A stretch of 64,000 nucleotides of DNA. It comes from an uncultured virus (IMG/VR IMGVR_UViG_3300029286_000014) (lineage: Duplodnaviria > Heunggongvirae > Uroviricota > Caudoviricetes). Positions 9,453-52,410 of this stretch are shown here, one piece after another. The translations under genes were made by a program, and so were the position numbers. Numbering within the stretch: the first letter of the stretch is position 1; every line of letters begins with the position of its first letter. The stretch lies in the IMG/VR virus record IMGVR_UViG_3300029286_000014, one strand, 5' to 3'. Below the pieces are notes generated by a model, which made no database searches, was not told the DNA's origin, and saw nothing but the letters and a program-made list of their open reading frames with translations.

Positions 9453-10571
9453 ATGACAATGGATGATTTATTAAAAAAAGCGAATGTTAATGAAGCAAAA
9501 TTGAGAACACATATGAATACAATAACAGCCGAAGAACTTGGAAATATATCAGAACCTTGTTATATGCCATCTGTTCAAATGTCATATTTAACAATTCTTA
9601 AATACATGGGATTAACAGAAAATGACTATAGAGAATTTATAAAAAGTTTTTATCTTTATGACCATCAATATGCAAAGTTCAATATGGTTAAAGATTTAGG
9701 AACAAATGTTGTTTTAAGCGCAATATATTATTTCTTAAAGAAGAAAGATATTAAAACATTTTTTACTTGCATGTTATTTCTATCAATTAAATTTCAAGGA
9801 AGCGCAACTAGAAAAGCTTTCACAAAATTTTGTGACCCAGATCTTTATATGTACACTCTAAATCATTTAAGTAAATCACATTTATATGTAAGAGAAAAAA
9901 CAATTGCTGGTGCATTATTTTGGACCACAAAAAATATGGTAAGAATATATCAGCACGATCTAGAAAAATTTGATAATTTTGAAAATGTTGGAAAATTTCT
10001 ATATGCTTTAAGAACAAGAATACAACAGAGTTTCAATAGTTTCTTTGGATTGTATAAAAAATTTTACGAAGAAGGAGTTAAAATTTCTTCTGATGATTCA
10101 GAAGAAGAATCCCCTGCAACGTCATATCTTGAAAGAGGTGGGCATCAGATTGAAGTAGTTGTAAGAAATATAACTGTTTATAAACATGTAGATCAAAAAG
10201 CACTTGAAGATGCTAAAAAATTATCATCAGTATCATTATCTTTTGTTTCACAAATAGTTCGTGGATTGTGCGATGTCAAATATCAAGATAGATTGAAATT
10301 GATTTTTGAATTATTTCTTAGGGATGTTAAAAAAATAGATTATATTTGTGGTGTTGCATTTTTTGATTACGTAAAATCTTTAATGTCTATAAAAAGAACA
10401 AAAATGGAAATTTATTTTAAACAACAAGTTGCTATTTTATTAAAAGAGGTTGCTACTGACGTTGGCATCAAGACAAAACTACAATCATTAACTAATCAAA
10501 CACAATATAACTTATCATTATTCTTAGCTTATTATTTAACATTATGTTTTAGACACACAGTTTGTCAATGA
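9453..10571 (+). CDS. hypothetical protein
   Basis: 372-aa ORF, no recognised motif. Confidence 0.6.
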   Translation: MTMDDLLKKANVNEAKLRTHMNTITAEELGNISEPCYMPSVQMSYLTILKYMGLTENDYREFIKSFYLYDHQYAKFNMVKDLGTNVVLSAIYYFLKKKDIKTFFTCMLFLSIKFQGSATRKAFTKFCDPDLYMYTLNHLSKSHLYVREKTIAGALFWTTKNMVRIYQHDLEKFDNFENVGKFLYALRTRIQQSFNSFFGLYKKFYEEGVKISSDDSEEESPATSYLERGGHQIEVVVRNITVYKHVDQKALEDAKKLSSVSLSFVSQIVRGLCDVKYQDRLKLIFELFLRDVKKIDYICGVAFFDYVKSLMSIKRTKMEIYFKQQVAILLKEVATDVGIKTKLQSLTNQTQYNLSLFLAYYLTLCFRHTVCQ

Positions 10572-39098: not shown

Positions 39099-39584
39099 TT
39101 ATTGATTATTTTGTGTTGGTTTTTCTGTCATTTTTCTTTCTGCATATCCAAGTGCGGTATTTTTAGCCATTCCTGTTGCCATATTTTTAGCAGCCTGAAC
39201 AGGTTGTGATGTTGTAACTTTATTTACCATTCCTGAATTTTTTATTTGCCCCATTCTTTTAGCAGCTCCAGATGTAACAGCATCAACTCTTTGTTTTGCA
39301 GCTTGAGCAGCTGCGGTATTTCTTAATGCAGTTACTTTGTTTGCTGCTGCTTGTGCCATTCTAGATTTTTGTATATTTGCTGCAACTTGAGCAGCCCCAG
39401 TTCTAATTTGGTTTGCTCCACCTATAACTCTTTTACCAACACCAGTTTGACCAGCTCTTGTAATCGCATTCATGGCTTGCCCAGCATATCTTCCAGCAAA
39501 ATTTGCAATTGGCTGAATAAATTCATGAAGAGCCATTTCGCCTTCTAGATAAAGAAGATAATTTTCAATTATTGTTTTTTTCAT
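39099..39584 (-). CDS. Ala/Gln-rich basic protein, putative internal head protein
   Basis: Late-like motif upstream (39597..39613, minus strand). N-terminal IIENYLLYLE. Confidence 0.55.
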   Translation of the reverse strand: MKKTIIENYLLYLEGEMALHEFIQPIANFAGRYAGQAMNAITRAGQTGVGKRVIGGANQIRTGAAQVAANIQKSRMAQAAANKVTALRNTAAAQAAKQRVDAVTSGAAKRMGQIKNSGMVNKVTTSQPVQAAKNMATGMAKNTALGYAERKMTEKPTQNNQ

Positions 39585-39633
39585 GATATCCTCATCTTTT
39601 ACTTTTTGTTCTCATTTTAGATGTTCATTCTCC

Positions 39634-40956: not shown

Positions 40957-41877
40957 ATGATATGCGATTATGGATGTGGAAGAGAAGCAAAATATACATT
41001 CAAAAATGGAAAGTATTGTTGTGAAAGTTGGGTTTCATATTGTCCAAAACAAAAAGAAAAAAATAAAAAAGGACAAGTTAAAAGATATTCACTTGATCCG
41101 AAAACAAGAAAAAATAAAATTGGAAATTGTGAATATTGTAACAAAGAACATGATGGAACTTATGCGAGTGGAAGATTTTGTTCTAAGAAATGTGCAAGAA
41201 AATATTCATCTAATATACACAGAGAAATGATAAATGAAAAAGTCTCTGCAACTTTAAGAAATGAGAAGTATAACAAAGAAAAACACATCTACAATTTAAC
41301 ATGCTTATGTTGCGAAAATTCATTTCAAAAAGAAATACATATTTCATCATACGAGCAAAAAAGATTTATTGCGATATGTGATAAATGTAAAAAAACAGCA
41401 AGGGAAACTGATTTAGATAATTTAGCTTTCAGATTTTGGTTAAAATTTAAGAAACAACAAAGAACTGTTGATGAAAAAATAAATAAACTTTCTTGGGATG
41501 AATTACCACATGCAAGAAAAAGAAAAAAAGTTCTTGAAGAACAAAACTACAAATGTAGTACATGTGGAATTGAAGAATGGAATGGTAAATTAATAACTCT
41601 TAGCCTCCATCATAAAGATGGAAATAATAAAAATAATAGTAGAGAAAATCTTCAATTCTTATGCCCAAATTGTCATACACAAACTGAGACATATGGTATA
41701 AAAAGTTTAATAAAAAGGAACCCTTCTGCTGTTGGAAAAAAACAAGTTTCAGATGAAGATTTATTAAAATATCTTCTTGAAAGTAAAAGTATTATTGCTG
41801 GGGTTCGTAAGGCAGGAATAACAGATACAAGAAGAGCAAAAAGATTGCTTAATAAATATTTTTCATTAAATAAATGA
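40957..41877 (+). CDS. HNH homing endonuclease with an N-terminal Cys-rich module
   Basis: CSTCG...LHHKDGNNKNNSRENLQFLCPNCHTQT. Confidence 0.9.
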   Translation: MICDYGCGREAKYTFKNGKYCCESWVSYCPKQKEKNKKGQVKRYSLDPKTRKNKIGNCEYCNKEHDGTYASGRFCSKKCARKYSSNIHREMINEKVSATLRNEKYNKEKHIYNLTCLCCENSFQKEIHISSYEQKRFIAICDKCKKTARETDLDNLAFRFWLKFKKQQRTVDEKINKLSWDELPHARKRKKVLEEQNYKCSTCGIEEWNGKLITLSLHHKDGNNKNNSRENLQFLCPNCHTQTETYGIKSLIKRNPSAVGKKQVSDEDLLKYLLESKSIIAGVRKAGITDTRRAKRLLNKYFSLNK

Positions 41878-41951
41878 TGCGCGATGGTGTAACAGAAACA
41901 CGATGGTCTCATAAGCCATAACTCCCAGTGCAACTCTGGGTTGCGCAACCA
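41878..41951 (+). tRNA. tRNA-Met (CAT)
   Basis: Cloverleaf, anticodon arm ATGGT-CTCATAA-GCCAT, encoded CCA. Confidence 0.85.
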
Positions 41952-41953
41952 AT

Positions 41954-42042
41954 ATTTGATGGGAGTCGAACACCATCAAATGCAGATCACCAGACAGGTC
42001 TGTGTACCTCCTGAATGTCGGCGGGGTAGCCGTTGTCTGGAA
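41954..42042 (+). ncRNA. unclassified pseudoknotted RNA, copy 1
   Basis: Second copy at 42679..42775 with pairing-preserving changes. Confidence 0.7.
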
Positions 42043-42145
42043 CTCAAAACAATACTTTTCCTTGCTAGGGATTAATCAACAAAATGTAACAAATAATAAA
42101 GATGATATGTTGTATCTTCTTTACTAAAAATAGCGAGGATTAAAA

Positions 42146-42676
42146 ATGAAAAAAGAAAAATTGGTCGATGGGTATCTGGTTTATCTAAAAGAAGATGAAC
42201 CTAAGTATGGTTTTTTTAGAGGAATTCACAAAGCAGTCAAGAGTTTTGGAAATGCCGCAGGAACCGCTGGGGAGACAATGGATCGGGGGCAAGCTGGAAT
42301 GGCAGAATTAAACAAAAAAATTGATGCAGTAGTTGCAAAAATGCCTGAAATCAGAAAATATCTACAGTGGATAGGGATAGGTGTTGTATCAATTATTGGG
42401 TTAGCAGTTTTTTTGAAGATTGTAAAAGCCGTTGTTCTTAATTCAAGAAAATGCTATAGAGTTTGTAAAACAAAGTCCAACGATTCACTAAGTAAAATAT
42501 GCATGTTGAATTGCAAAATTATGATTGCAAAACAAACAATTGCGGCATTAAAACAAGCTTGTGCATCAAGTAAAAATCCTGAAAAATGCAAAGCTAAAAC
42601 TGAAAAGAAAATTGCGGCTCTCGAGAAAAAGATTGCAGAACTGCAAAAGAAAGTTTCATATTATAAAGTAAATTAA
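42146..42676 (+). CDS. putative virion protein with a membrane segment and Cys-patterned C-terminus
   Basis: Late-like motif upstream. CASSKNPEKCKAK resembles the proteins at 3859 and 4494. Confidence 0.6.
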   Translation: MKKEKLVDGYLVYLKEDEPKYGFFRGIHKAVKSFGNAAGTAGETMDRGQAGMAELNKKIDAVVAKMPEIRKYLQWIGIGVVSIIGLAVFLKIVKAVVLNSRKCYRVCKTKSNDSLSKICMLNCKIMIAKQTIAALKQACASSKNPEKCKAKTEKKIAALEKKIAELQKKVSYYKVN

Positions 42677-42678
42677 GT

Positions 42679-42775
42679 ATTTGATGAGTTCACCCCCTCA
42701 TCAAATGCAGACCACCAGATAGGTCTGTCAGCCTCCTTTTTATTTTTAATCCGGTGGGGTAGCCGTTGTCTGGAA
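42679..42775 (+). ncRNA. unclassified pseudoknotted RNA, copy 2
   Basis: See copy 1. Confidence 0.7.
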
Positions 42776-42805
42776 TCCAAATTTTTGTTTGAAAGGAGAA
42801 ACACA

Positions 42806-43171
42806 TTGCCCAAAGAAGGAGATGTTGTTTTAATTTATAGGGATAATAGACCAATGACATTTGCCGAAATTCATGAGATAACATCAAACGAGAAAAAGAA
42901 TTGGTGGAATGTAGATTTTATTGGTTTGTCGTTACCTCTAACAAAATTCACATGGATTTTAAGAATGGAACAGTTAGACGGTGAAGATTTCACAATGGGA
43001 GGAACCCCAGTAAAAATAACTTCTTTAGAGAAGTTATTAAATGTACAAGATAAAAAAACTAAAGTTCTTGAAATACCAAAAAAGAAACAGGAAATAAAGA
43101 AGATGGGAAAGGTGATTCAATTAAGACCAAAAAAAGATGAACCACCAGAAGATGAACCATTAATTGCTTAA
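42806..43171 (+). CDS. hypothetical protein (TTG start)
   Basis: SD AAAGGAG upstream of TTG 42806. Confidence 0.55.
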   Translation: MPKEGDVVLIYRDNRPMTFAEIHEITSNEKKNWWNVDFIGLSLPLTKFTWILRMEQLDGEDFTMGGTPVKITSLEKLLNVQDKKTKVLEIPKKKQEIKKMGKVIQLRPKKDEPPEDEPLIA

Positions 43172-43178
43172 AGGTTAT

Positions 43179-43252
43179 TGGGAAATAGTTCAACAGCAGA
43201 ACTCTGGCCTTTGACGCCAGCAATCTAGGGGCAGAACCTAGTTTCCCTGCCA
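43179..43252 (+). tRNA. tRNA-Gln (TTG)
   Basis: Cloverleaf, CTGGC-CTTTGAC-GCCAG, CCA end, atypical T-loop GGCAGAA. Confidence 0.85.
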
Positions 43253-43266
43253 ACAAAATTTCTTGC

Positions 43267-43427
43267 GCTGCCTGTGAGTGGCCACCTGAAAATTACCAGA
43301 CGATGGATAAAAGCAGCCACTTGACTCCATCGTCTGTACTACGTCAGGGAGATTACCGTTTCGTAATGTCGGTCGAATAGAATGAGTGACTATGAATCCA
43401 ACCATTCTATAAAAGTCTCTGGGCAGC
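43267..43427 (+). ncRNA. unclassified ~160-nt multi-helix RNA with a pseudoknot
   Basis: Five nested helices plus a 7-bp loop pairing, GC-richer than its surroundings, directly after tRNA-Gln. Confidence 0.65.
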
Positions 43428-44220
43428 AACTTTAAAAATAAAAAGGAGAGTGAAAATGCTAGGAGCTTTAGCGATTATATGCACCACAATAGTTTTATTA
43501 TTATTGATTTCTTGGGGTATTATGTATGCTACTCTGAATAAATGTAAACATAAATATAATCCACCAGAAAATGGAATTCAAAAATGTATAAATTGTGGTG
43601 TTATACGTTATGATGAGTGTAACCATTCATGGAAAAGTATTGATGCTATAACTATAGGACCTACTATGGTTAATACTATACAATGTAAAAATTGTGGGGA
43701 AATCGTATATAGGACATTTAATTCACTAAAAGGAGAATAATTATGGGTTTCTTGAATATGTTTGGAGGAAAACCAGGTTATGTTTGTATTCGCTCTAAAA
43801 AAGATCCTCGGTGGAATTATGGGGAAAGGGTGGAGTCTCTAGTTGTTATGGCGGGTATACATCCTGTAATAACCGAAAAGATTGAAGAGCTAAAAAAATT
43901 CTATGGAGAACAGCCAGAGGATTTGGAATACAGTTGCATGAAAGATTAGAAGTACACCATTCCCCTTATCATAAAAATAAGGGGGATTTAAAAAGACTAC
44001 AAATACAAAGGAGAATAAATAATGATACAGAATATACAAGAACTTGCTTCAGAAGTTGCAAAAAGAGAAGGAAAAGAGTGTGAAGTAATAATTGGAAATG
44101 TTAGGGAAGTTTTAGCAATTATAAGCGATATGATTCATGAAGATCCGCATGTCGCTACAATTTTGGAAGAAAATGGTTTCAGAAGGGAGAAAGAAAAATC
44201 TATAGAACCAAAGTAATTAT

Positions 44221-44291
44221 GCGGGGATAGCTCAACGATAGAGCCCACAGATTGTACTGTGGAGATTCCTGTTAAACTCAGGATCCCCACT
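44221..44291 (+). tRNA. degenerate tRNA-like gene (Thr TGT-like, 6-nt anticodon loop, no CCA)
   Basis: D arm GCTC/GAGC, T arm TCCTG/CAGGA, acceptor stem with one mismatch. Confidence 0.5.
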
Positions 44292-44297
44292 AAAAAT

Positions 44298-44372
44298 ACT
44301 CCTGTAATCTAACGGTTAGGATATCAGACCTTCAATCTGAGTATAGCAGTTCGATTCTGCTCGGGAGTGCCA
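44298..44372 (+). tRNA. tRNA-Glu (TTC)
   Basis: TCAGA-CCTTCAA-TCTGA, TTCGATT T-loop, CCA. C at position 33. Confidence 0.85.
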
Positions 44373-44412
44373 ATATTCCAAACACAGTAACAGATTTATT
44401 CATTTGTGTTAG

Positions 44413-45051
44413 GTGAATTCAACTACAAAAACGAAAGGAGAAATTATGAGTAAAGTGATTTTTGAAATACAAGTAGAAATTGATGAGAAGTGCAGTATGA
44501 AAAAACATTATAGACCATATATCTGGGAAGATAGAAATTTATTGAGGGGGAAATGGTATAAACTGAAAGGAAAGAATAAATCTATAATGGTAACATCTTT
44601 AGAAACCTCAGATGTCGGTGTGCTTTTAATAAATGGTATTTCATCTAAAAGTTTTCTAAAGAACTATATTTGGGATAATGAAGATTTAAATGCGCCACAT
44701 ATATGTGGTATTGAAGTGGAAATTCCTGGGCCATCTTTAGATGATTTATACTCAAAAAGACAGCAATATATTTTTAATAAAATAATAGAATTGAATGTTT
44801 CAAAATTAAAGAAAGAATATAATGATATAGAAAGTTGTCTAGCAGATATTTCTTCCCATCAAGCATTTTGGACTACGAGAGAGCAAATTTTTGATTCTGT
44901 GACCTCTTTTGATGATAGAATATCTTTTAGTACTTTGTATAATGATCTAGTGTTTTTAGAAAGCTGTGGTTTGATAAAAAGTAAAAAACTATGTGGGCCT
45001 AAAAATAAAACTGGATATTTCGTTACAACATTTAAAATGGTTGATGAATAA
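44413..45051 (+). CDS. hypothetical protein with a possible C-terminal winged-helix domain
   Basis: ISFSTLYNDLVFLESCGLI resembles a Fur/wHTH recognition helix. Confidence 0.4.
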   Translation: MNSTTKTKGEIMSKVIFEIQVEIDEKCSMKKHYRPYIWEDRNLLRGKWYKLKGKNKSIMVTSLETSDVGVLLINGISSKSFLKNYIWDNEDLNAPHICGIEVEIPGPSLDDLYSKRQQYIFNKIIELNVSKLKKEYNDIESCLADISSHQAFWTTREQIFDSVTSFDDRISFSTLYNDLVFLESCGLIKSKKLCGPKNKTGYFVTTFKMVDE

Positions 45052-45079
45052 TTCATCACTAGTACAATTTAAAAAATAT

Positions 45080-45158
45080 GGTGTGTTCGCCTAGTCTGGC
45101 CTATGGCACATGACTGTCTATCATGATTTCAGGAGTTCGAATCTCCTACACACCGCCA
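45080..45158 (+). tRNA. tRNA-Asp (GTC)
   Basis: CATGA-CTGTCTA-TCATG, TTCGAAT, CCA. Confidence 0.9.
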
Positions 45159-45164
45159 AAATAT

Positions 45165-45240
45165 TCACCCTTAGCTCAGTTGGTAGAGCGAATGACTGTT
45201 AATCATTAGGTCCCTAGTTCGAGCCTAGGAGGGTGAGCCA
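45165..45240 (+). tRNA. tRNA-Asn (GTT)
   Basis: Canonical 76-nt cloverleaf, AATGA-CTGTTAA-TCATT, CCA. Confidence 0.95.
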
Positions 45241-45269
45241 AAATTAAACTTAAAAGAGGATCTATAAAA

Positions 45270-45530
45270 ATGAGTCTTTTACAAAAGTATTTAAAATTAT
45301 TAACTGAAGGATACAAGCAAAGTACCATTAGAAGAACAAGACAAAATAAAATTAATTCATCGACTGGAACTATTGCTGTATCAATGGCCAGAGAAAAGAA
45401 TGACTCTCTTTATCGCAGAATGATTATGTACAAGAAACTATACATCATGGCCAAAAAACAACTAGAGAGAAAATATCGTTCAAAGTCTACACAAAGAGCG
45501 AGAAAGTTAGCATCAGGAACAAGAAAATAA
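45270..45530 (+). CDS. small basic protein, putative internal head protein
   Basis: N-terminal LLQKYLKLLTE, very Lys/Arg-rich. Confidence 0.55.
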   Translation: MSLLQKYLKLLTEGYKQSTIRRTRQNKINSSTGTIAVSMAREKNDSLYRRMIMYKKLYIMAKKQLERKYRSKSTQRARKLASGTRK

Positions 45531-45731
45531 ATGTACAGAAGGAGGTGAATTATGGATTTTAAAGAATTAACAGCACAAGATATTCTTAGAGTTCTAGTTA
45601 AGCAACAATTCTATGAATTTTATGAAGGACCTTTTGTAAAATATATAGAAGGTGAACCTGATGCAAAAACCAAAGAAGAAATTTTGAAAGAGATCGAATC
45701 TCTTTTTAATTTTTAAATTTGGAGGTGAATT

Positions 45732-46262
45732 GTGAAACTAGCGATTGTTGATGGAATTGAAGCGAGCCCATGTTTAGGATGCGGATATTGCTGTCTTCAG
45801 GCACAATGTGGATTATCCGTAAGAGTTCATACTTATAAAGAAATATGTCCATCTTTATACTGGGGTGAAGCACGAAAAAGGCATTTATGCAGAGCAGTTG
45901 AAGGAGATTTGATAGTAACCAATGGAAAAGAATTATCTATTGGTGAAGGTTGTTGCAGTCCTCTAAATTCCTGGAGAAAAGAAATCAAAAATAGAATTCC
46001 AGAAAAACTCGCGTACGTAAATTCTAAAAATATAAACAAAATCAATTTCGATAAATTTTTTCAAGAGTTTGTATTTATTCTTGGAAAACAGTGGCTATCA
46101 GGAGATGTTGTGGCATTAACTTTAGCAGCTTATAAAAGAAGCATTATCGAAAAATTCGGAATATCTGATAGAGACGCATCTCAATTATGCAAAAGAATTC
46201 ATCACATAATGAGAGAACAACAATCTTCTTTTGTGAAAGGATTCATTGGTGAAATAGATTAA
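45732..46262 (+). CDS. Cys-rich putative Fe-S/Zn-binding protein
   Basis: CLGCGYCC....C...CP..C..GCC. Confidence 0.5.
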   Translation: MKLAIVDGIEASPCLGCGYCCLQAQCGLSVRVHTYKEICPSLYWGEARKRHLCRAVEGDLIVTNGKELSIGEGCCSPLNSWRKEIKNRIPEKLAYVNSKNINKINFDKFFQEFVFILGKQWLSGDVVALTLAAYKRSIIEKFGISDRDASQLCKRIHHIMREQQSSFVKGFIGEID

Positions 46263-46267
46263 ATTAT

Positions 46268-46341
46268 GGCACTGGGTGGGAGGTCGCGCGAACAGTACCC
46301 AATCAAACTTTGGAATACTTCGAGCCCATCTGGTGCCGCCA
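46268..46341 (+). ncRNA. 74-nt CCA-terminated tRNA-like hairpin RNA
   Basis: 13-bp terminal helix plus a GCCA end and TTCGAG, but no cloverleaf. Confidence 0.55.
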
Positions 46342-46355
46342 AATAATTATATTAT

Positions 46356-46429
46356 CTAGCTGTAGCTGAGGAGATTAGCACGCGGTTTGGGGCCGTGAGA
46401 CGCTGGTGCGATTCCAGCCAGCTGGACCA
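46356..46429 (+). tRNA. tRNA-Pro (TGG)
   Basis: CGCGG-TTTGGGG-CCGTG, CCA. Confidence 0.88.
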
Positions 46430-46811
46430 TCAAATCTTTTTAAAAGGAGAAAAAATGATAACGTGGAAATGTAAAGATTGTGAATTTAAGTGTACTCTAG
46501 TCTCTGGTAGTGCCTCATCCTCTCCTATATCATGCCCATACAACTATAGTAATTCAGATTGGATGTGCACTGAGGTTTTAGATGATATGCTAAATCCCAT
46601 AAGAGAAGTAATTGATTCTAAATATAAAATAAAATGGGGGGACAAATTTTTTGATGAATTTACTGTCGAAGTTTTTGGGGTTCCAGTTGAGCAACATTTA
46701 AATTTTTATAGAATAACAAGAGAAGCAAGAGAGAAACTAAAACCAAAATTTGAAAATAATATATTGTATATATTTTTAGATGTTCCTAAATAAAAAATGA
46801 AGGAGAATAAC

Positions 46812-47156
46812 ATGGAAGAAACAATCGAAAAGAGGGGGGCGTTTTTAGAGAGCCTACAAAGAAATAACAAACAGATCCGGTTAGATCGAGCTCAAGCAAT
46901 TGGAGATGACACACAACTGGGATACAAAAGGGCAGTTGAAGATCTTGAATTGAGTATTAAAAAGATGAGGAGAGAGCAAGAAAACATGCTAGACCTAAGT
47001 CCTACTAACGCTCAGAGTCTTGTATTGGCGAGTGATTTCGATTCTAATGCTTATATAGCAAAAGATATCGAAATCGGAGTCAAAATCAGGAATGCTGAAA
47101 TTAAACTAGAAATTGCAAAAGCGAGGTATGGTTATCTCTTTGGAAAGGAGGTTTAA
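46812..47156 (+). CDS. coiled-coil hypothetical protein
   Basis: SD AAGGAG, first gene before the VWA/PurA-like pair. Confidence 0.6.
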   Translation: MEETIEKRGAFLESLQRNNKQIRLDRAQAIGDDTQLGYKRAVEDLELSIKKMRREQENMLDLSPTNAQSLVLASDFDSNAYIAKDIEIGVKIRNAEIKLEIAKARYGYLFGKEV

Positions 47157-47157
47157 T

Positions 47158-48054
47158 ATGGGGCATGGCGGATATTCATCGACGTGGGACAACTCAAAAG
47201 GTTCTTATTCTTATGATTCTAGTATTAGAGATTTAAGAGCAAAGGACAGAGGATTCTATACAAAAAGTAGAACAGAAATATTTAACTCAAAAAACATCAA
47301 CAGTTCAATGAACCCTTATGGGGTGCAGATAAGAGAATCAAGAGATTCTATAGAACACCCAAACTCAGTTCCAATAATTATTGGTATTGACGTAACTGGA
47401 TCCATGGGATCTGTTCCTCATTATCTAGTAAAAGAGGGACTCCCAAAGATAATGGAAAAGATTATTCTAAATGGAATATTAGACCCTCAAGTTTTGTTTG
47501 TAGCAATCGGAGATCATGAATGTGATAATAGCCCACTTCAGATAGGGCAATTTGAATCTTCTGACTCTTCTCTTGACAAATGGCTAACGGATACCTGGTT
47601 AGAAGGTGGCGGGGGAGGAAATGCTGGTGAGTCTTATTTATTGGCGTGGTATTTTGCAGCAAATCACACTGCAATAGACAGTCTTGAAAAAAGAGGAAGA
47701 AAAGGATTTTTATTCACAATTGGGGATGAACCAGTTCTTTCAGAAATTCCATCATCTGCGCTGAAAGGAATAATGGGCATCGATCAGCCTCAAAGTTATA
47801 CAGCGCAACAGTTATATGAAAAAGCGAAAGAAAAATATCACGTTTATCATATTCATATAAAAGAAACTTCTTCTGGAAGTAGACAAAGAGTGATAGATGA
47901 ATGGAAACAGTTGCTTTCAGATAATTTGTTGGTTGCAAATAGACACACAGAAGTTTCTGGAATTATTTCAGAAATTATTTTAAAAGAAAAGGATTCAATT
48001 GTTTCTGGTATTTCTACCCCTTCAATTCATGATTCTGTAGAGGAAATGTTGTAG
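47158..48054 (+). CDS. von Willebrand factor A (VWA) domain protein
   Basis: MIDAS-like DVTGSMG, GGGGN..ESY, FTIGDE. Confidence 0.85.
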   Translation: MGHGGYSSTWDNSKGSYSYDSSIRDLRAKDRGFYTKSRTEIFNSKNINSSMNPYGVQIRESRDSIEHPNSVPIIIGIDVTGSMGSVPHYLVKEGLPKIMEKIILNGILDPQVLFVAIGDHECDNSPLQIGQFESSDSSLDKWLTDTWLEGGGGGNAGESYLLAWYFAANHTAIDSLEKRGRKGFLFTIGDEPVLSEIPSSALKGIMGIDQPQSYTAQQLYEKAKEKYHVYHIHIKETSSGSRQRVIDEWKQLLSDNLLVANRHTEVSGIISEIILKEKDSIVSGISTPSIHDSVEEML

Positions 48055-48062
48055 GAGTTAAA

Positions 48063-49190
48063 ATGAAAACAGCAGTTATTGGGCTAGGATTTGGAGACGA
48101 AGGAAAGGGCAGAGTCGTAGATTGGCTCTGCTCTTATCGGCCCGATTCTTTAGTGGTAAGATTTTCAGGAGGATCTAATGCAAGTCATAAAGTTTATAAA
48201 CCAGATGGTTCTGGATTTCATGCTTTTTCAAATTTAGGAAGCGGAACATTCAGAGGATGCCCAACCTACTGGTCAGAGTTTTGTACTTTCGATCCTGCCG
48301 ATTTATTGTTTGAGGCCGAATACATCAAAAAAGCAGGAGTTGAAAATTTTAAACTCTATGTGAATTTAGATTGTCCAGTTGTTACCACATGGGATAAAAG
48401 ATACAACAAGATTCAAAATGATATGACTTTTCATGGGAGTTGCGGTGTCGGTCTAGGAGCTACTCATGAAAGAGAAGAAAATCATTATTCTCTTAGGGTG
48501 AGAGATTTATTTTATTATGATCTGAGATCACAAAAAGTAACAGAAATTATAAAATATTATAAATCTAAAGGAATCAAAGCAACCCTAGAAGAGATCGAAC
48601 TATTCTTCATTTGTGTAGAGAAATCTAAAGAATTATTCACACCAGTTGAAAGCATCCCTCAATCTGTTAATTATCTATTTGAAGGATCACAAGGATTAAT
48701 GTTGGATCAAAATTATGGTGTTTTTCCACATGTAACAAGAAGCAATACAGGAACACAAAACATCATTAAAATGGGATTTGATATGAATTCCTTCTTTCAT
48801 GATAGGTGTTTTCTTGTCACTAGAGCATACCACACTCGACATGGAAATGGATATCACCCAACCGACCATATTCCGCATAATATTAAAGAGAATCCCTATG
48901 AACAAAATGTAGAAAATTATCAGGGAAAGTTTAGAAGGGGATTACTTGATGTAAGTTTGTTGAAATACGCAATTGAAAAAGATAAGATTTTAAAAGGTAA
49001 TCAGTGTGATATGTCAATTGTTATAACATGTCTCGATTTGATAGAAAATGAATGGAGATTTGTTGAGAATGGGGTAATTGTAAATTGTTTAGATGAATAT
49101 GAATTTCTAACAAAGATTAAAAAATTACTACCCTATCCTATAGCGGTTAGTCGTACACCTTATGGGAAAATCGAAATATTTACACTCTAA
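48063..49190 (+). CDS. purA: adenylosuccinate synthetase-like protein
   Basis: GLGFGDEGKG, VRFSGG.NASH, SCGVG.G, FEGSQG.MLD..YG.FPHVT.S, TRHGNG. Confidence 0.85.
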   Translation: MKTAVIGLGFGDEGKGRVVDWLCSYRPDSLVVRFSGGSNASHKVYKPDGSGFHAFSNLGSGTFRGCPTYWSEFCTFDPADLLFEAEYIKKAGVENFKLYVNLDCPVVTTWDKRYNKIQNDMTFHGSCGVGLGATHEREENHYSLRVRDLFYYDLRSQKVTEIIKYYKSKGIKATLEEIELFFICVEKSKELFTPVESIPQSVNYLFEGSQGLMLDQNYGVFPHVTRSNTGTQNIIKMGFDMNSFFHDRCFLVTRAYHTRHGNGYHPTDHIPHNIKENPYEQNVENYQGKFRRGLLDVSLLKYAIEKDKILKGNQCDMSIVITCLDLIENEWRFVENGVIVNCLDEYEFLTKIKKLLPYPIAVSRTPYGKIEIFTL

Positions 49191-49233
49191 ATCATTTAAG
49201 TAAATCACATTTATATGTAAGAGAAAAAACAAT
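49181..49233 (+). repeat. exact 53-nt direct copy of 9852..9904
   Basis: TACACTCTAAATCATTTAAGTAAATCACATTTATATGTAAGAGAAAAAACAAT at both sites. Confidence 0.9.
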
Positions 49234-49288
49234 GGGGTAATGTAAAAAGAAAAATGATATTGGTTCAAATAAATCATTAACAAATTGT

Positions 49289-49323
49289 ACCGGTTATATT
49301 TTATATAGCCGGTCTTTTTCTTT
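49289..49323 (+). terminator. Rho-independent terminator
   Basis: ACCGGTTATAT/ATATAGCCGGT stem plus T run. Confidence 0.75.
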
Positions 49324-49361
49324 GTAAAAAACAAATATAAAAAATTAGAAGGAGAAAAGCT

Positions 49362-49571
49362 ATGCCGTTGTTCGAAGTCGCTGTAATTCAAGATCCAACC
49401 GTAAGAGAAAGGGAAGATGGGGAATTGGAAAAATTGATCTATGGTCCAGAGACCGTGATCGCTGCAAGTGAACAGGCTGCAGGAATGGAAGTGTACACAA
49501 AAGCTGTAAAGATTGAAAATATTGAAAATTTTGATCCGAAAAGATTTAAAATTTTAGTTCGCCCTTTTTAA
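49362..49571 (+). CDS. small protein ending LVRPF at a slippery site
   Basis: SD AAGGAG. C CCT TTT lies immediately before TAA. Confidence 0.7.
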   Translation: MPLFEVAVIQDPTVREREDGELEKLIYGPETVIAASEQAAGMEVYTKAVKIENIENFDPKRFKILVRPF

Positions 49572-49885
49572 GTAGCCTTTCCAACAGTTCTTACTGGTCT
49601 ATTGGATTTATAAAACGGAAAGGCACACAACCAAATTCTTATTGTCATACGAGAGCTATTTCTGGTTTTTCTGGTTATAGCGGAATTTCTGGTTATATCG
49701 GATATTCTGGAAAACCACAAATGATGATCTATAATGGGTCTACAGGATCTACTGGTCCCAATGGCCCTTGTGGGGAATCTGGAGAATCTGGAACGACAGG
49801 AAGATTGGTTGGAAAGGCGAGAGAAGTTTCTATTGTAGAAAAGACAAGCAAAAAAAGGAGTAAAAGTTTTTCAGTAAATAACTGA
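49568..49885 (+). CDS. -1-frame extension with collagen-like Gly-X-Y repeats
   Basis: 105 open codons (SGFSGYSGISGY...GSTGSTGPNGPCGESGESGTTG). Its only ATGs lie downstream of the first repeat block. Confidence 0.6.
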   Translation, partial: LSSLSNSSYWSIGFIKRKGTQPNSYCHTRAISGFSGYSGISGYIGYSGKPQMMIYNGSTGSTGPNGPCGESGESGTTGRLVGKAREVSIVEKTSKKRSKSFSVNN

Positions 49886-51132
49886 AAAACATAGAACCGG
49901 CCACGCCTCTATTTTTGTAGTTTAAATATGCGCACCACGGCCGGTCTTTATAAAAATAACATAGGAGGTGATTGTGAATACTGAACCACAAGATGTTTAC
50001 ACAACTGAAAAAAGAACAGTTAGAAGTAAAAGAATAACACCGTCAAATGAACCATGCCCTAAATGTGCGAGTATGAGAGCAGATAGAAAGTTATATTTTA
50101 AGGGGAATAAAGTCGAAAGAGAATATGGCGATTGTTTTAATAAATTCATAAATATGATTTTAAAATATTCAGAATTTTTTATAAAAGATACTGATTCATA
50201 CAGTGATCGTAATATAGCAAAAGAGTGCATAGTAAGTAAATGCAAATGTTGTGGATATATGTGGCCAACTAAACCACTAAGTTGAATTTTTGGTCGGATG
50301 TTTATAAAATGTTTTATAATAAATATTAAAAAGTAAAAGGAGTTAGTATGGACAGAAGTAGAATTTCTATAACACGTCATGTAGGGAAATTGTGGGGGGA
50401 TATTCCTTCAAGTTTTGTCAAGTGGGCCATTGAAGAAGCTAAAAATTTTAAGGGGTTTACACTTGAAAAACTAATAGAGGAATATGAAAAAAGGGAATTG
50501 AAAACTATTAAAATGGAAGTTTTGGAAAAAACAGAAAAAGCATTAGCTCTTTCAAAACTAAACAAAGAACAAACAGTAAATCCTGAGCAAGAGCAAGAGG
50601 AAACTGTTGAAAAGAAAATGATTTTTGAATACGATCCTGATCAACTTAAACTTTTTAGAAAAAAGATTTTGGGCAAACAAAGAGGAAATGCTGTTATAAA
50701 AGAAGGCATCAAATATGCATTCAATGAGCTTGAAGAATATATAAAAGAAAACTCAAAACTAATAGAAATTTAAAAGGAGAAAATCTATGAAAAACAAACC
50801 ATTTACTTAAGTAACTAAAAACTACTTAAGGAGGTATTTACAATGTCTAGATCTCGTAAAAAGATCTGTGGTGGAGGAATTTGCTGTGGATCAAATCATG
50901 AATGGTCCAAAGCAGAACACAGGAGAGAACGCAGAACTGCTAAACAACTTATTCTGTCGTTTATGGATGAAACACTTATTCCTCATCCAAAGTATTGGGG
51001 GGATCCGTGGTTGTCACCTAGCGATGGAAAAAGTGTTTGGTGGTGGCCTTGGATGTTAAAAACGGATTCTTTCAAAAACAATCCTGAAAAGATTAAATGT
51101 TACATGAAAAGTATCAGAAAGTAAATATCTCA

Positions 51133-51245
51133 TCCACCAAGAGTGGAAGGAGTTGGGTCTTCCCTAGAGAGTAGACCTTGTTTTTAGCTGATCTGCCATG
51201 TGCAGAAACAGTTACAGGATCGTCATTCGTGGCGATCCCAGCTTT
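51133..51245 (+). ncRNA. unclassified four-way-junction RNA abutting tRNA-Ile
   Basis: Three hairpins closed by GGAGTTG/CAGCTTT, including a 9-bp stem with a TTCG loop. Confidence 0.55.
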
Positions 51246-51317
51246 ACCCGAATAGTTCAATAGTAGAACCTTCCGCTGATAATGGAAAAACGGCAGGTGC
51301 GAATCCTCCTTCGGGTA
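51246..51317 (+). tRNA. tRNA-Ile (GAT), no encoded CCA
   Basis: ACCCGAA/TTCGGGT acceptor stem, TTCCG-CTGATAA-TGGAA, imperfect T stem. Confidence 0.75.
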
Positions 51318-51656
51318 AATATCAAAATTCATAGGAGATTTTATGGAATTAGATGGTTCATTAAATATTGAAAAGATTGGTGAGATAAATTTTACAATTG
51401 AACTTGATCAATTTTATGAGAAAGCAGAAAGAACAACAATGGATCATCCTGGATTTCCAGAATCTGTAACATGGGATGGATATACAATAATTGGTTTAAC
51501 TGATTATCCAAATATTTTCAAAGATGTTGATATTCTTATGAAAGAAGCTTTTGGAAATGATGAAATTCGTAAAGAGATTGAATCAGAAATGCTTAGAATA
51601 ATCAAAGAAACTGAAGATTTTGATTAATTATAACAAAATATTAAAGGGAGAGATTT

Positions 51657-51947
51657 ATGAAAAAAATAGTTATCATAATGTTTTTAATAATTATGTTTCT
51701 ATTAACAACAACATCAGTTTTAATCGCGTCACCAATTTTTAAAATAGATGCATCTTCTTCGTTTAAAGAATTTGAAATAAAAGAATTGCAAATTCAAATA
51801 GATCGATATAATTCTTATCATCAAATAGATTTTCGGCAAAAACCAACAAATGCTCCTGCCCCAGTTCCAGAACCAGCAACAATAATTTTATTGGGTTCAG
51901 GAATTATTTTCGTTGGAACTATGGTTCGAAGAAAACCAAAAGGCTGA
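51657..51947 (+). CDS. PEP-CTERM sorting-domain protein
   Basis: Signal peptide plus PVPEPATIILLGSG, a transmembrane segment and RRK. Confidence 0.85.
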   Translation: MKKIVIIMFLIIMFLLTTTSVLIASPIFKIDASSSFKEFEIKELQIQIDRYNSYHQIDFRQKPTNAPAPVPEPATIILLGSGIIFVGTMVRRKPKG

Positions 51948-51951
51948 TGAG

Positions 51952-52209
51952 ATGCCTATCTTAGAGATATGGATGATTATTATTGGTGCTTCATTGGCTT
52001 TTTCAAGTGTTCCACAGATTTTAAAAATAGTTAGAGAAAGAGAATCAAAAAGTGTTTCTATTCCATCATGGATAATAATTAGTCATGCAAATTTCTGGTG
52101 GCTTTGTTATGCAGTTGTTATAAAAAGTGTAAGTTTATTTGTAACAAATATGTTGTCATTGGGTATATCACTAATAACAATTATTGTAATTATGAGATAT
52201 AGAGAATAA
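51952..52209 (+). CDS. SemiSWEET / PQ-loop family transporter
   Basis: About 85 aa, three hydrophobic segments, VPQILKI.R..ESKSVS. Confidence 0.8.
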   Translation: MPILEIWMIIIGASLAFSSVPQILKIVRERESKSVSIPSWIIISHANFWWLCYAVVIKSVSLFVTNMLSLGISLITIIVIMRYRE

Positions 52210-52232
52210 ATTTATACTTTCATTATTTTAGA

Positions 52233-52410
52233 GTATCTATGAGATAAGCCACACACCGGGATGTCGATGAAGCTGAGGCTCGGGGGTGGAGACTTGTGTG
52301 AAACTATCAAAATGGATACGATGAGGATTCGGGAGTTATAATCCTCGATTGAGAATCGGCGCCGATAAACTCAATTAAAAGAGATGTGTTGAGCAAGCAT
52401 CTTACCTCCC
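52233..52410 (+). ncRNA. unclassified ~180-nt structured RNA
   Basis: Four stems and a GGGAG/CTCCC loop-tail pairing in a GC-richer intergenic gap. Confidence 0.5.

Follow-up and report, generated by a model that had tools for sequence, protein, structure and literature searches.

What are the GC-rich stretches that lie among the tRNA genes of this phage? The locus spans positions 41878 to 52410 of a 64,000-nucleotide (nt) stretch of DNA, called the window below, from the uncultured virus IMGVR_UViG_3300029286_000014 (Caudoviricetes). A sequence-only reading had described it as seven tRNA genes and one degenerate tRNA gene interleaved with six foldable elements, richer in GC than their surroundings and free of open reading frames (ORFs), and had proposed that tRNA processing releases them as undescribed small RNAs, possibly anti-defence decoys or translation modulators. 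We found seven elements in this RNA island, referred to as A to G, the last of which was absent from that description. What is new here is an orphan abiF-type RNA (G), a duplicated hairpin-pseudoknot family (A and B) and a rearranged tRNA top half (D). A/B, C, D and G are very probably real RNAs; E is likely to be one, and for F we lean slightly against.

Element G (49894..49948, + strand) is a single abiF-type hairpin with a 19-nt inner loop. When the region was searched with all Rfam families, abiF (RF03085) matched at 49897-49945 with 30.4 bits against a cut-off of 37 (E 0.032). This was the best abiF match among 47 clade records, and none was found in 14 control genomes. G has the abiF structure: an outer stem of 6-7 bp, a bulged A, an inner stem of 3 bp and a 6-nt bulge on the 3' side. 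Across the 15 rows of an alignment, 98.7% of cells are paired, and at one variable pair only the phage copy carries G-C, the other 14 rows having C-G, U-A or U-G. The invariant columns of both arms are all common to G and 14 bacterial copies, which were chosen by the same pattern.

These copies came from GTDB, where a first, stricter abiF pattern gave no loci and a core pattern taken from G gave 45. An ORF of at least 110 aa was found within 250 nt at 27 of them, and 26 of these ORFs were scanned, one running off its locus being left out; 19 of the 26 were Abi_2/AbiF. Rfam matched abiF in 13 of the 14 loci tested, and in 11 of these the score exceeded the cut-off, for L407 at a second site; L435, whose loop has 18 nt and which does carry an Abi_2 gene, stayed below it like G, at 34.2 bits. 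Only 7e-10 exact pattern matches are expected by chance in the record that holds the window (G000), a figure to be read with the pattern having been drawn from the window itself. In the phage, the next ORF after G had no Pfam match, and no Abi_2 gene was found in G000 or G002 (~143 kb together), in a scan whose positive control was recovered. Blastn of G against phages and plasmids gave no match. Judged on its sequence, G is an orphan abiF-type motif, outside any AbiF system seen here; the literature searched, mostly outside subscription journals and available in part, held no report of such an RNA.

In Clostridioides difficile, an RNA that carries two abiF motifs neutralises AbiF in cis as well as in trans, and the motifs need their stems and tolerate compensatory swaps (PMC12373285; here and below, statements from articles cited by PMC number refer to the available portions of their text). 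The decoy idea is firmest for G, by analogy with the pseudo-ToxI of phage phiTE. On that analogy we regard G as a credible candidate for an AbiF decoy, with the case not quite balanced in its favour.

Element A (41953..42040, + strand) begins 1 nt past the CCA of tRNA-Met and consists of a 5' hairpin (41954-62/41973-81) followed by an H-type pseudoknot with stems S1 (41982-88/41997-42003) and S2 (41990-96/42034-40), a loop 1 of 1 nt and a short stem in loop 3. Element B (42678..42773, + strand) shares these helices; it begins 1 nt past a stop codon, away from any tRNA. It is a paralogue of A (76% over the BLAST-aligned core) at a distance of 725 nt, with one gene (42146..42676) in between. In both copies the 5' hairpin stacks on a helix of 7 bp, and a further 7 bp join the loop of that helix to the 3' end of the element, loop 1 being one nucleotide long and loop 2 absent; such lengths are standard for H-type pseudoknots. 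All 28 of 28 pairs are kept in both A and B, including the 5-bp stem in loop 3. Substitutions affect 5 of 56 paired columns vs 15 of 31 unpaired ones (Fisher p 9e-5), and those in paired columns include one two-sided and three wobble changes. A 7+7-bp pseudoknot arose in 14 and 7 of 5000 shuffles, and the pseudoknot descriptor gave six hits genome-wide, three of which were A/B. Going by these two sequences, A/B is a duplicated hairpin-pseudoknot family under apparent selection.

An inner second pseudoknot (columns 56-59/80-83 with 76-79/86-89) is also base-paired in both copies. Its two stems are unlikely to form together, because a linker of 1-2 nt would have to cross a stem of 4-5 bp; in our model the two inner pairings are alternatives. 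Viral pattern scans for A/B returned an identical copy of the phage and unrelated chance hits, and a metagenome scan found, besides one chance hit, a single contig that is 100% identical. In GTDB, a first pattern gave 108 loci, none above 16.2 bits with the A/B model R1, and a second gave 120 loci from 39 of 64 parts, with the pseudoknot in none and gaps in multiples of three in 115. Model R1 found nothing in 81 sources, in 41 records or, with filters off, in five array loci. As a separate observation, a 17-nt stretch of the B loop (42733-42749) matches exactly, as reverse complement, the ribosome-binding regions at genome position 4910 and window position 43448, and 16 nt of it match genome position 52656, perhaps by low-complexity chance. 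The sequence CCUCCU is kept in both A and B.

Element D (46268..46341, + strand) has a 13-bp terminal helix, a discriminator G followed by CCA, and a 39-nt insert with a hairpin. Read back from the G-CCA end, the acceptor accounts for seven bases and the T-stem for five, and UUCGAGC then occupies the canonical T-loop position. The 5' partner of the T-stem continues the 5' acceptor strand, giving one 13-bp helix, and the insert lies on the 5' side of the T-loop. D has the features of a minihelix, namely a 12-bp acceptor plus T helix, a T-loop consensus at the canonical distance and an NCCA end; acceptor/T-arm minihelices are known as synthetic model substrates. Across 375 kb (this phage and the arrays of its relatives, both strands), only D has a helix of at least 11 bp that ends in N-CCA. 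It has no tRNA D arm and no 7-nt anticodon loop, its fold is rod-like and not a cloverleaf, and it was called neither by ARAGORN, even at a relaxed score, nor by Rfam. An identity as tRNA or allo-tRNA was rejected, since the cloverleaf with D arm and anticodon loop is absent.

Element C (43267..43426, + strand) is predicted to be a multi-arm fold of ~160 nt with a closing helix of 8-11 bp, and by eye two UGAGUG sites are alternative possible partners for its loop GCCACUU. Element E (51133..51245, + strand) would combine a small 5' hairpin with a closed three-arm junction, and its 3' end abuts tRNA-Ile. Element F (52233..52410, + strand) is a GC-rich intergenic stretch upstream of a coaD-like cytidylyltransferase gene; only its 5' half folded better than shuffled sequence (z -2.35, vs -1.27 for the 3' half). 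The structures of C, E and F are predictions from one sequence each. F is the weakest candidate, doubtful as an RNA in its own right and perhaps a leader belonging to the coaD-like gene.

We compared the minimum free energy of each element with 200 dinucleotide shuffles. The z-scores, with the number of shuffles at least as stable in brackets, were -2.7 (6) for A, -3.5 (0) for B, -5.3 (0) for C, the most stable fold of the set, -2.5 (2) for D, -2.7 (3) for E and -1.1 (23) for F, so that the foldability asserted from sequence held for A-E and failed for F. Among equal-length windows outside the region, which were not GC-matched, those as stable or more numbered 0 of 788 for A, D and E, 1 of 788 for B, 0 of 393 for C and 4 of 393 for F. 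Plain hairpins elsewhere in the genome reach z -5 to -9; the z-score alone is therefore undistinctive, and the case rests on the anatomy of each element. The higher GC content was borne out (0.45-0.58 for A-F vs 0.307 for the genome), as was the proximity of four elements to tRNA ends within about 15 nt: the closest tRNA end is 1 nt from A, 14 nt from C, 14 nt from D and 0 nt from E, vs 405 nt from B and 914 nt from F. In a test over 22 gaps in the region, 6 of them with tRNAs, this adjacency was modestly above chance (p = 0.025 for 4 of 6 elements; p = 0.054 for 4 of 7, with G counted). The absence of ORFs was correct for gene-sized ones; at A, B, C and E there are overlapping short ORFs (41-72 codons).

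A-F had no match in Rfam 15, which includes tmRNA (transfer-messenger RNA), RNase P, signal recognition particle RNA and riboswitches, either at the gathering score or down to E 10. Similarity to SAM-I, THF, Y RNA, tRNA-Sec and group I cores, seen by eye, had no backing from Rfam and was dropped. Blastn showed no similarity to phage records for A-C, D or E-F, and neither blastn nor nhmmer, with one run that scored only six candidates per record, found relatives of E and F. Single-sequence models of C and D, of a type low in power, found only themselves in 23 sources.

All tRNA genes and elements of the island are co-oriented on one strand and placed right after stop codons. ARAGORN called seven tRNA genes, one of them unassigned (44221), and Rfam added tRNA-Gln at 43179, giving the seven tRNAs and one degenerate tRNA counted before, with all coordinates holding. 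The stop codon of an HNH endonuclease gene (40957..41877, +) abuts tRNA-Met(CAT) (41878..41951, +), which encodes its CCA, and the gene between A and B (42146..42676, +) codes for 176 aa without a known family. tRNA-Gln(TTG) (43179..43252, +), found by Rfam and not by ARAGORN, has an atypical T-loop and an encoded CCA. The degenerate tRNA (44221..44292, +) has an irregular anticodon loop and no CCA. It is followed by tRNA-Glu(TTC) (44298..44372, +), tRNA-Asp(GTC) (45080..45158, +), tRNA-Asn(GTT) (45165..45240, +) and tRNA-Pro(TGG) (46356..46429, +), each called by ARAGORN/Rfam, and further on by tRNA-Ile(GAT) (51246..51318, +), without an encoded CCA. An intrinsic-terminator-like hairpin with a U-run (49289..49323, +) divides A-D from G, E and F and is the one clear terminator of the island. 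Several T-loops deviate from UUCRA: UGCAACU at 41878, GGCAGAA at 43179, UUAAACU at 44221, UGCGAUU at 46356 and UGCGAAU at 51246.

How might such an island work? In the model we favour, the tRNA genes and the seven non-coding elements are likely co-transcribed, and the tRNA-maturing enzymes of the host would cut the RNAs apart. RNase P matures tRNA 5' ends and 3' processing matures tRNA 3' ends, and release by such cuts is established tRNA maturation. RNase P, cutting at the 5' ends of the tRNA and of D, would set where E stops and where D begins; A and C would gain their 5' ends from tRNA 3' processing, and exonucleases would be halted by terminal helices or the pseudoknot. tRNA punctuation is directly applicable to only 4 of the 7 elements; B, F and G would need cuts other than those at tRNA or D ends. 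Once free, the elements would bind proteins in trans and so serve as decoys against RNA-targeting defences of the host; this is the weakest step. G is predicted to neutralise the AbiF (Abi_2) toxin, and D is a predicted stand-in for a tRNA top half.

We hold the parts of this model with differing confidence. A/B, C and D look like real, undescribed structured RNAs, as had been proposed, given the A/B pairing, the exact tRNA register of D and the strong fold of C; F is weak. Release of the elements as discrete RNAs is on balance likely. The decoy role gained specific support from G, which had not been part of the proposal; for A-F, which have no known target, it is unlikely. None of the results bears on a modulation of translation. 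The model as a whole, from co-transcription to decoys, remains tentative and narrowly misses being the way we would decide. An extended version, in which the island would be a counter-defence RNA arsenal made up of an orphan abiF antitoxin, a CCA-ended top half soaking up tRNA-targeting enzymes, and pseudoknot mimics, strikes us as rather improbable, and we think the same of its suggestion that the duplicated A/B pseudoknots mimic the antitoxin or ligand of an undescribed defence system.

A number of results weigh against the favoured model. The A/B structure was derived from the same two sequences on which it was tested, and the built-in shuffle control is powerless with two rows (236/500). 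B, F and G lie 400-1300 nt away from any tRNA. Sigma-70-like sites occurred at background level (47 vs 60 expected), and no promoter was established. No search returned a homologue of A-F, ~46 related phage records included, and none of A-G turned up in relatives. Conservation in related jumbo phages, which the sequence-only reading had set as a check, holds only between A and B and is wanting for every other element; element-by-element absence fits rapid turnover, as for counter-defence cargo or relics. G itself falls below the Rfam gathering cut-off, has a loop of 19 nt vs 7-9 nt in most bacterial copies and a single motif vs two in the tested C. difficile antitoxin, and was absent from 99 clade loci. 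G could also be a leader or a relic, as a start codon follows it at 20-30 nt, which is the spacing of the bacterial cis copies. With only about half of the genome covered, an Abi_2 gene could sit elsewhere.

Some of these points lead to other explanations. The elements might be cis-acting processing or stability signals of a long polycistronic message and not free, targeted RNAs: D would be a tRNA-like cut site, the 42146 mRNA would be capped at its 5' end by A and at its 3' end by B, F and G would serve the genes behind them as leaders or attenuators, and fragment ends would be shielded by C and E. The placement of all elements just after stop codons between co-oriented genes fits this well, as do the bracketing of exactly one gene by A and B, the spacing of G from its start codon, the position of F ahead of the coaD-like gene and the fact that D retains only the part of a tRNA that, as generally understood, RNase P reads. 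That A and B share one orientation and are conserved over their full length, however, agrees better with a duplicated RNA gene than with two different end signals; an end cap would not call for folds as elaborate as C (160 nt) and E, true tRNAs already provide cut sites beside A, C, D and E, and the abiF motif is a toxin-binding unit (PMC12373285). We consider this explanation possible and still clearly on the unlikely side.

The island may instead have collected passively acquired or decaying pieces: G would be what is left of a captured abiF operon after loss of its toxin gene, D and the gene at 44221 would be tRNAs in decay, and C, E and F would be remnants with no present function. The lack of conservation in relatives, the wealth of lineage-specific genes in the region (of its 22 proteins, only the HNH protein matched the clade loci compared), the degenerate tRNA and the failure of F in the shuffle test are in line with decay. 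It is hard to reconcile with purifying selection on the A/B pairs, with the retention in G of every invariant position plus a compensatory change, with the perfect 13-bp helix of D in a rearranged register, or with a GC content that is still 45-58% in a 31% GC genome, and we judge it improbable. Some elements, A/B above all, could instead belong to a new class of self-cleaving ribozyme that, in the manner of theta ribozymes, matures tRNA or mRNA ends. Only 1 nt separates the start of A from a tRNA 3' end, the 7-bp S1 opens with a G-U pair, as P1 of the hepatitis delta virus (HDV) ribozyme does, and the compact pseudoknot carries a conserved unpaired segment. Rfam ribozyme matches were nil to E 10, and a loose HDV descriptor, run without a positive control, gave no + strand hit in any of the six elements A-F; its two overlapping - strand hits in C are from the same unvalidated descriptor, which fired in 2/60 and 5/60 shuffles. 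In theta ribozymes the cleavage-site G lies within 5 nt of the tRNA 3' end, and only 4.5% of theta-linked tRNAs encode CCA (PMC10879173). In A the G that opens S1 is at 41982, 30 nt past the tRNA end at 41951, the CCA is already encoded, and B has no tRNA. The nested P1-P2-P3-P1.1 topology with a J4/2 cytosine was not found in A/B, P3/L3/P1.1 being absent between S2 and the 3' strand of S1. The theta identity, raised by the sequence-only reading, falls on topology and position, and we give the ribozyme explanation very little credence.

To place the island, we looked at the genome and its relatives. G000 is a linear virus record of 128,853 bp with 31% GC (0.307), 41% complete by CheckV, that codes for a terminase, baseplate proteins and several multisubunit RNA-polymerase subunits. 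Relatives were reached via the terminase (44-55% identity) and a clade marker gene; one of them (G021) has a complete 277-kb genome with terminal repeats, and an ENA contig of 292,511 bp carries proteins 86-99% identical to those of this phage. That the source is a jumbo-type myovirus, known here from a 129-kb fragment, is an inference well supported by these data. G002 and one metagenome contig are 100% identical copies and add no variation. The arrays of relatives hold 2-29 tRNAs and other GC-rich non-tRNA stretches, and Rfam found tmRNA in three of them (G004, G047 and G052). Packing extra RNAs among tRNAs appears to be general in the clade, with the individual RNAs differing.

Elements in the relatives' arrays were seen by eye, without alignment, at L271:10497-10575, L272:572-637, L269/L272:9865, L271:10121-10408 and L274:11149-11500. 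They include CCA-ended tRNA-like RNAs and two motifs seemingly common to pairs of genomes, and Rfam had no family for them; the label 'manA-like', given to one motif, was dropped as Rfam gave it no backing. L019 has, by eye, a multi-hairpin RNA directly 3' of tRNA-Gln, and L270 a hammerhead-like sequence directly 3' of tRNA-Val, both likewise without an Rfam family. Just past the end of G000, a HEARO RNA (113.5 bits) lies at L011:5962-6226 (-) without an HNH ORF alongside, that is, as an orphan HEARO, flanked by a 223-aa gene and a 682-aa gene that looks tail-sheath-like by eye. As hints to the host, the sole named homologue of a 128-aa protein (42785-43171) is from Thermodesulforhabdus norvegica (45% over 59%), a PEP-CTERM gene lies at 51657-51947, and 3 of the 45 abiF-pattern loci are in Desulfobacterota-named records, for which our script found no downstream ORF.

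Other features were noted in the window. A 58-nt repeat occurs at 49176-49233 and 9847-9904 (98% identical), and a similar AT-rich motif in many clade relatives may be a promoter or gene-end signal. An intergenic motif centred on TATATATATTAAT has four copies (19803, 29837, 39629 and 56010) and is a candidate phage promoter; the copy at 39629 is upstream of the RNA island. Small genes at 39099-39584 (-), 42146-42676, 45270-45530 and 564-1102 share an N-terminal L-x-x-Y-L-x-x-L/I pattern and are possibly a family of processed virion proteins. In 49362-49885, a 69-aa ORF ends in CCC TTT TTA A and another frame, with G-rich repeats, is open from 49553 to 49882, so a programmed frameshift is possible there.

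As abiF RNA binds and neutralises AbiF, the decoy idea can be tested with one small RNA and one protein. If it is true, orphan abiF would be a second kind of RNA-antitoxin mimicry after the phiTE pseudo-ToxI, and orphan RNA motifs in phage tRNA islands would offer a route to new RNA-guarded defence systems; a link has been drawn between the AbiF family and the origin of Cas13. A/B and D are two further folds, both missing from Rfam.

Non-tRNA RNAs in phage tRNA regions are already known, as RNAC and RNAD of T4, GOLLD and ROOL. GOLLD and ROOL are, like the present elements, structured phage RNAs near tRNA islands (PMC12286853, PMC5737381), yet GOLLD is often longer than 800 nt and our elements are 55-178 nt; an identity with either, also raised by the sequence-only reading, was rejected on size and the absence of Rfam matches. 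Theta ribozymes resemble A as pseudoknotted RNAs beside a phage tRNA 3' end (PMC10879173). Allo-tRNAs with 8/4 or 9/3 branches share with D an acceptor branch of 12-13 bp, a T-loop motif and NCCA (PMC5389517); D differs in that its 5' T-stem strand directly follows the acceptor, and in its 39-nt insert and lack of a cloverleaf. Type III antitoxins (ToxI/CptI/TenpI) are tandem H-type pseudoknot repeats of ~34-50 nt upstream of a toxin gene, to which tenpI adds a conserved A-run (PMC12373285, PMC12283969), and A/B were rejected as such antitoxins, their units being 88-96 nt long, 725 nt apart and without an A-run in loop 3. RNAC and RNAD of T4, small non-tRNA RNAs of undetermined function in a phage tRNA region (PMC3014915, PMC9697503), are two RNAs with expression shown, whereas here there are seven of unlike folds, known from sequence. 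With the abiF RNA (RF03085)/RCd22, G shares the two-stem hairpin, with GCCACGCCUCU in the 5' arm and GCGYACCACGGC in the 3' arm (PMC12373285). Bacterial abiF copies precede Abi_2 genes and G does not; it is single, has a longer loop, scores below the cut-off and, unlike those copies, belongs to the tRNA island of a phage that has genes for virion proteins and RNA polymerase. Our working picture of G follows the phiTE pseudo-ToxI, a phage RNA copy of a host antitoxin without its cognate toxin (PMC10286901): there the family is ToxN and the repeats are expanded, while for G it would be AbiF and a single hairpin in a predicted role.

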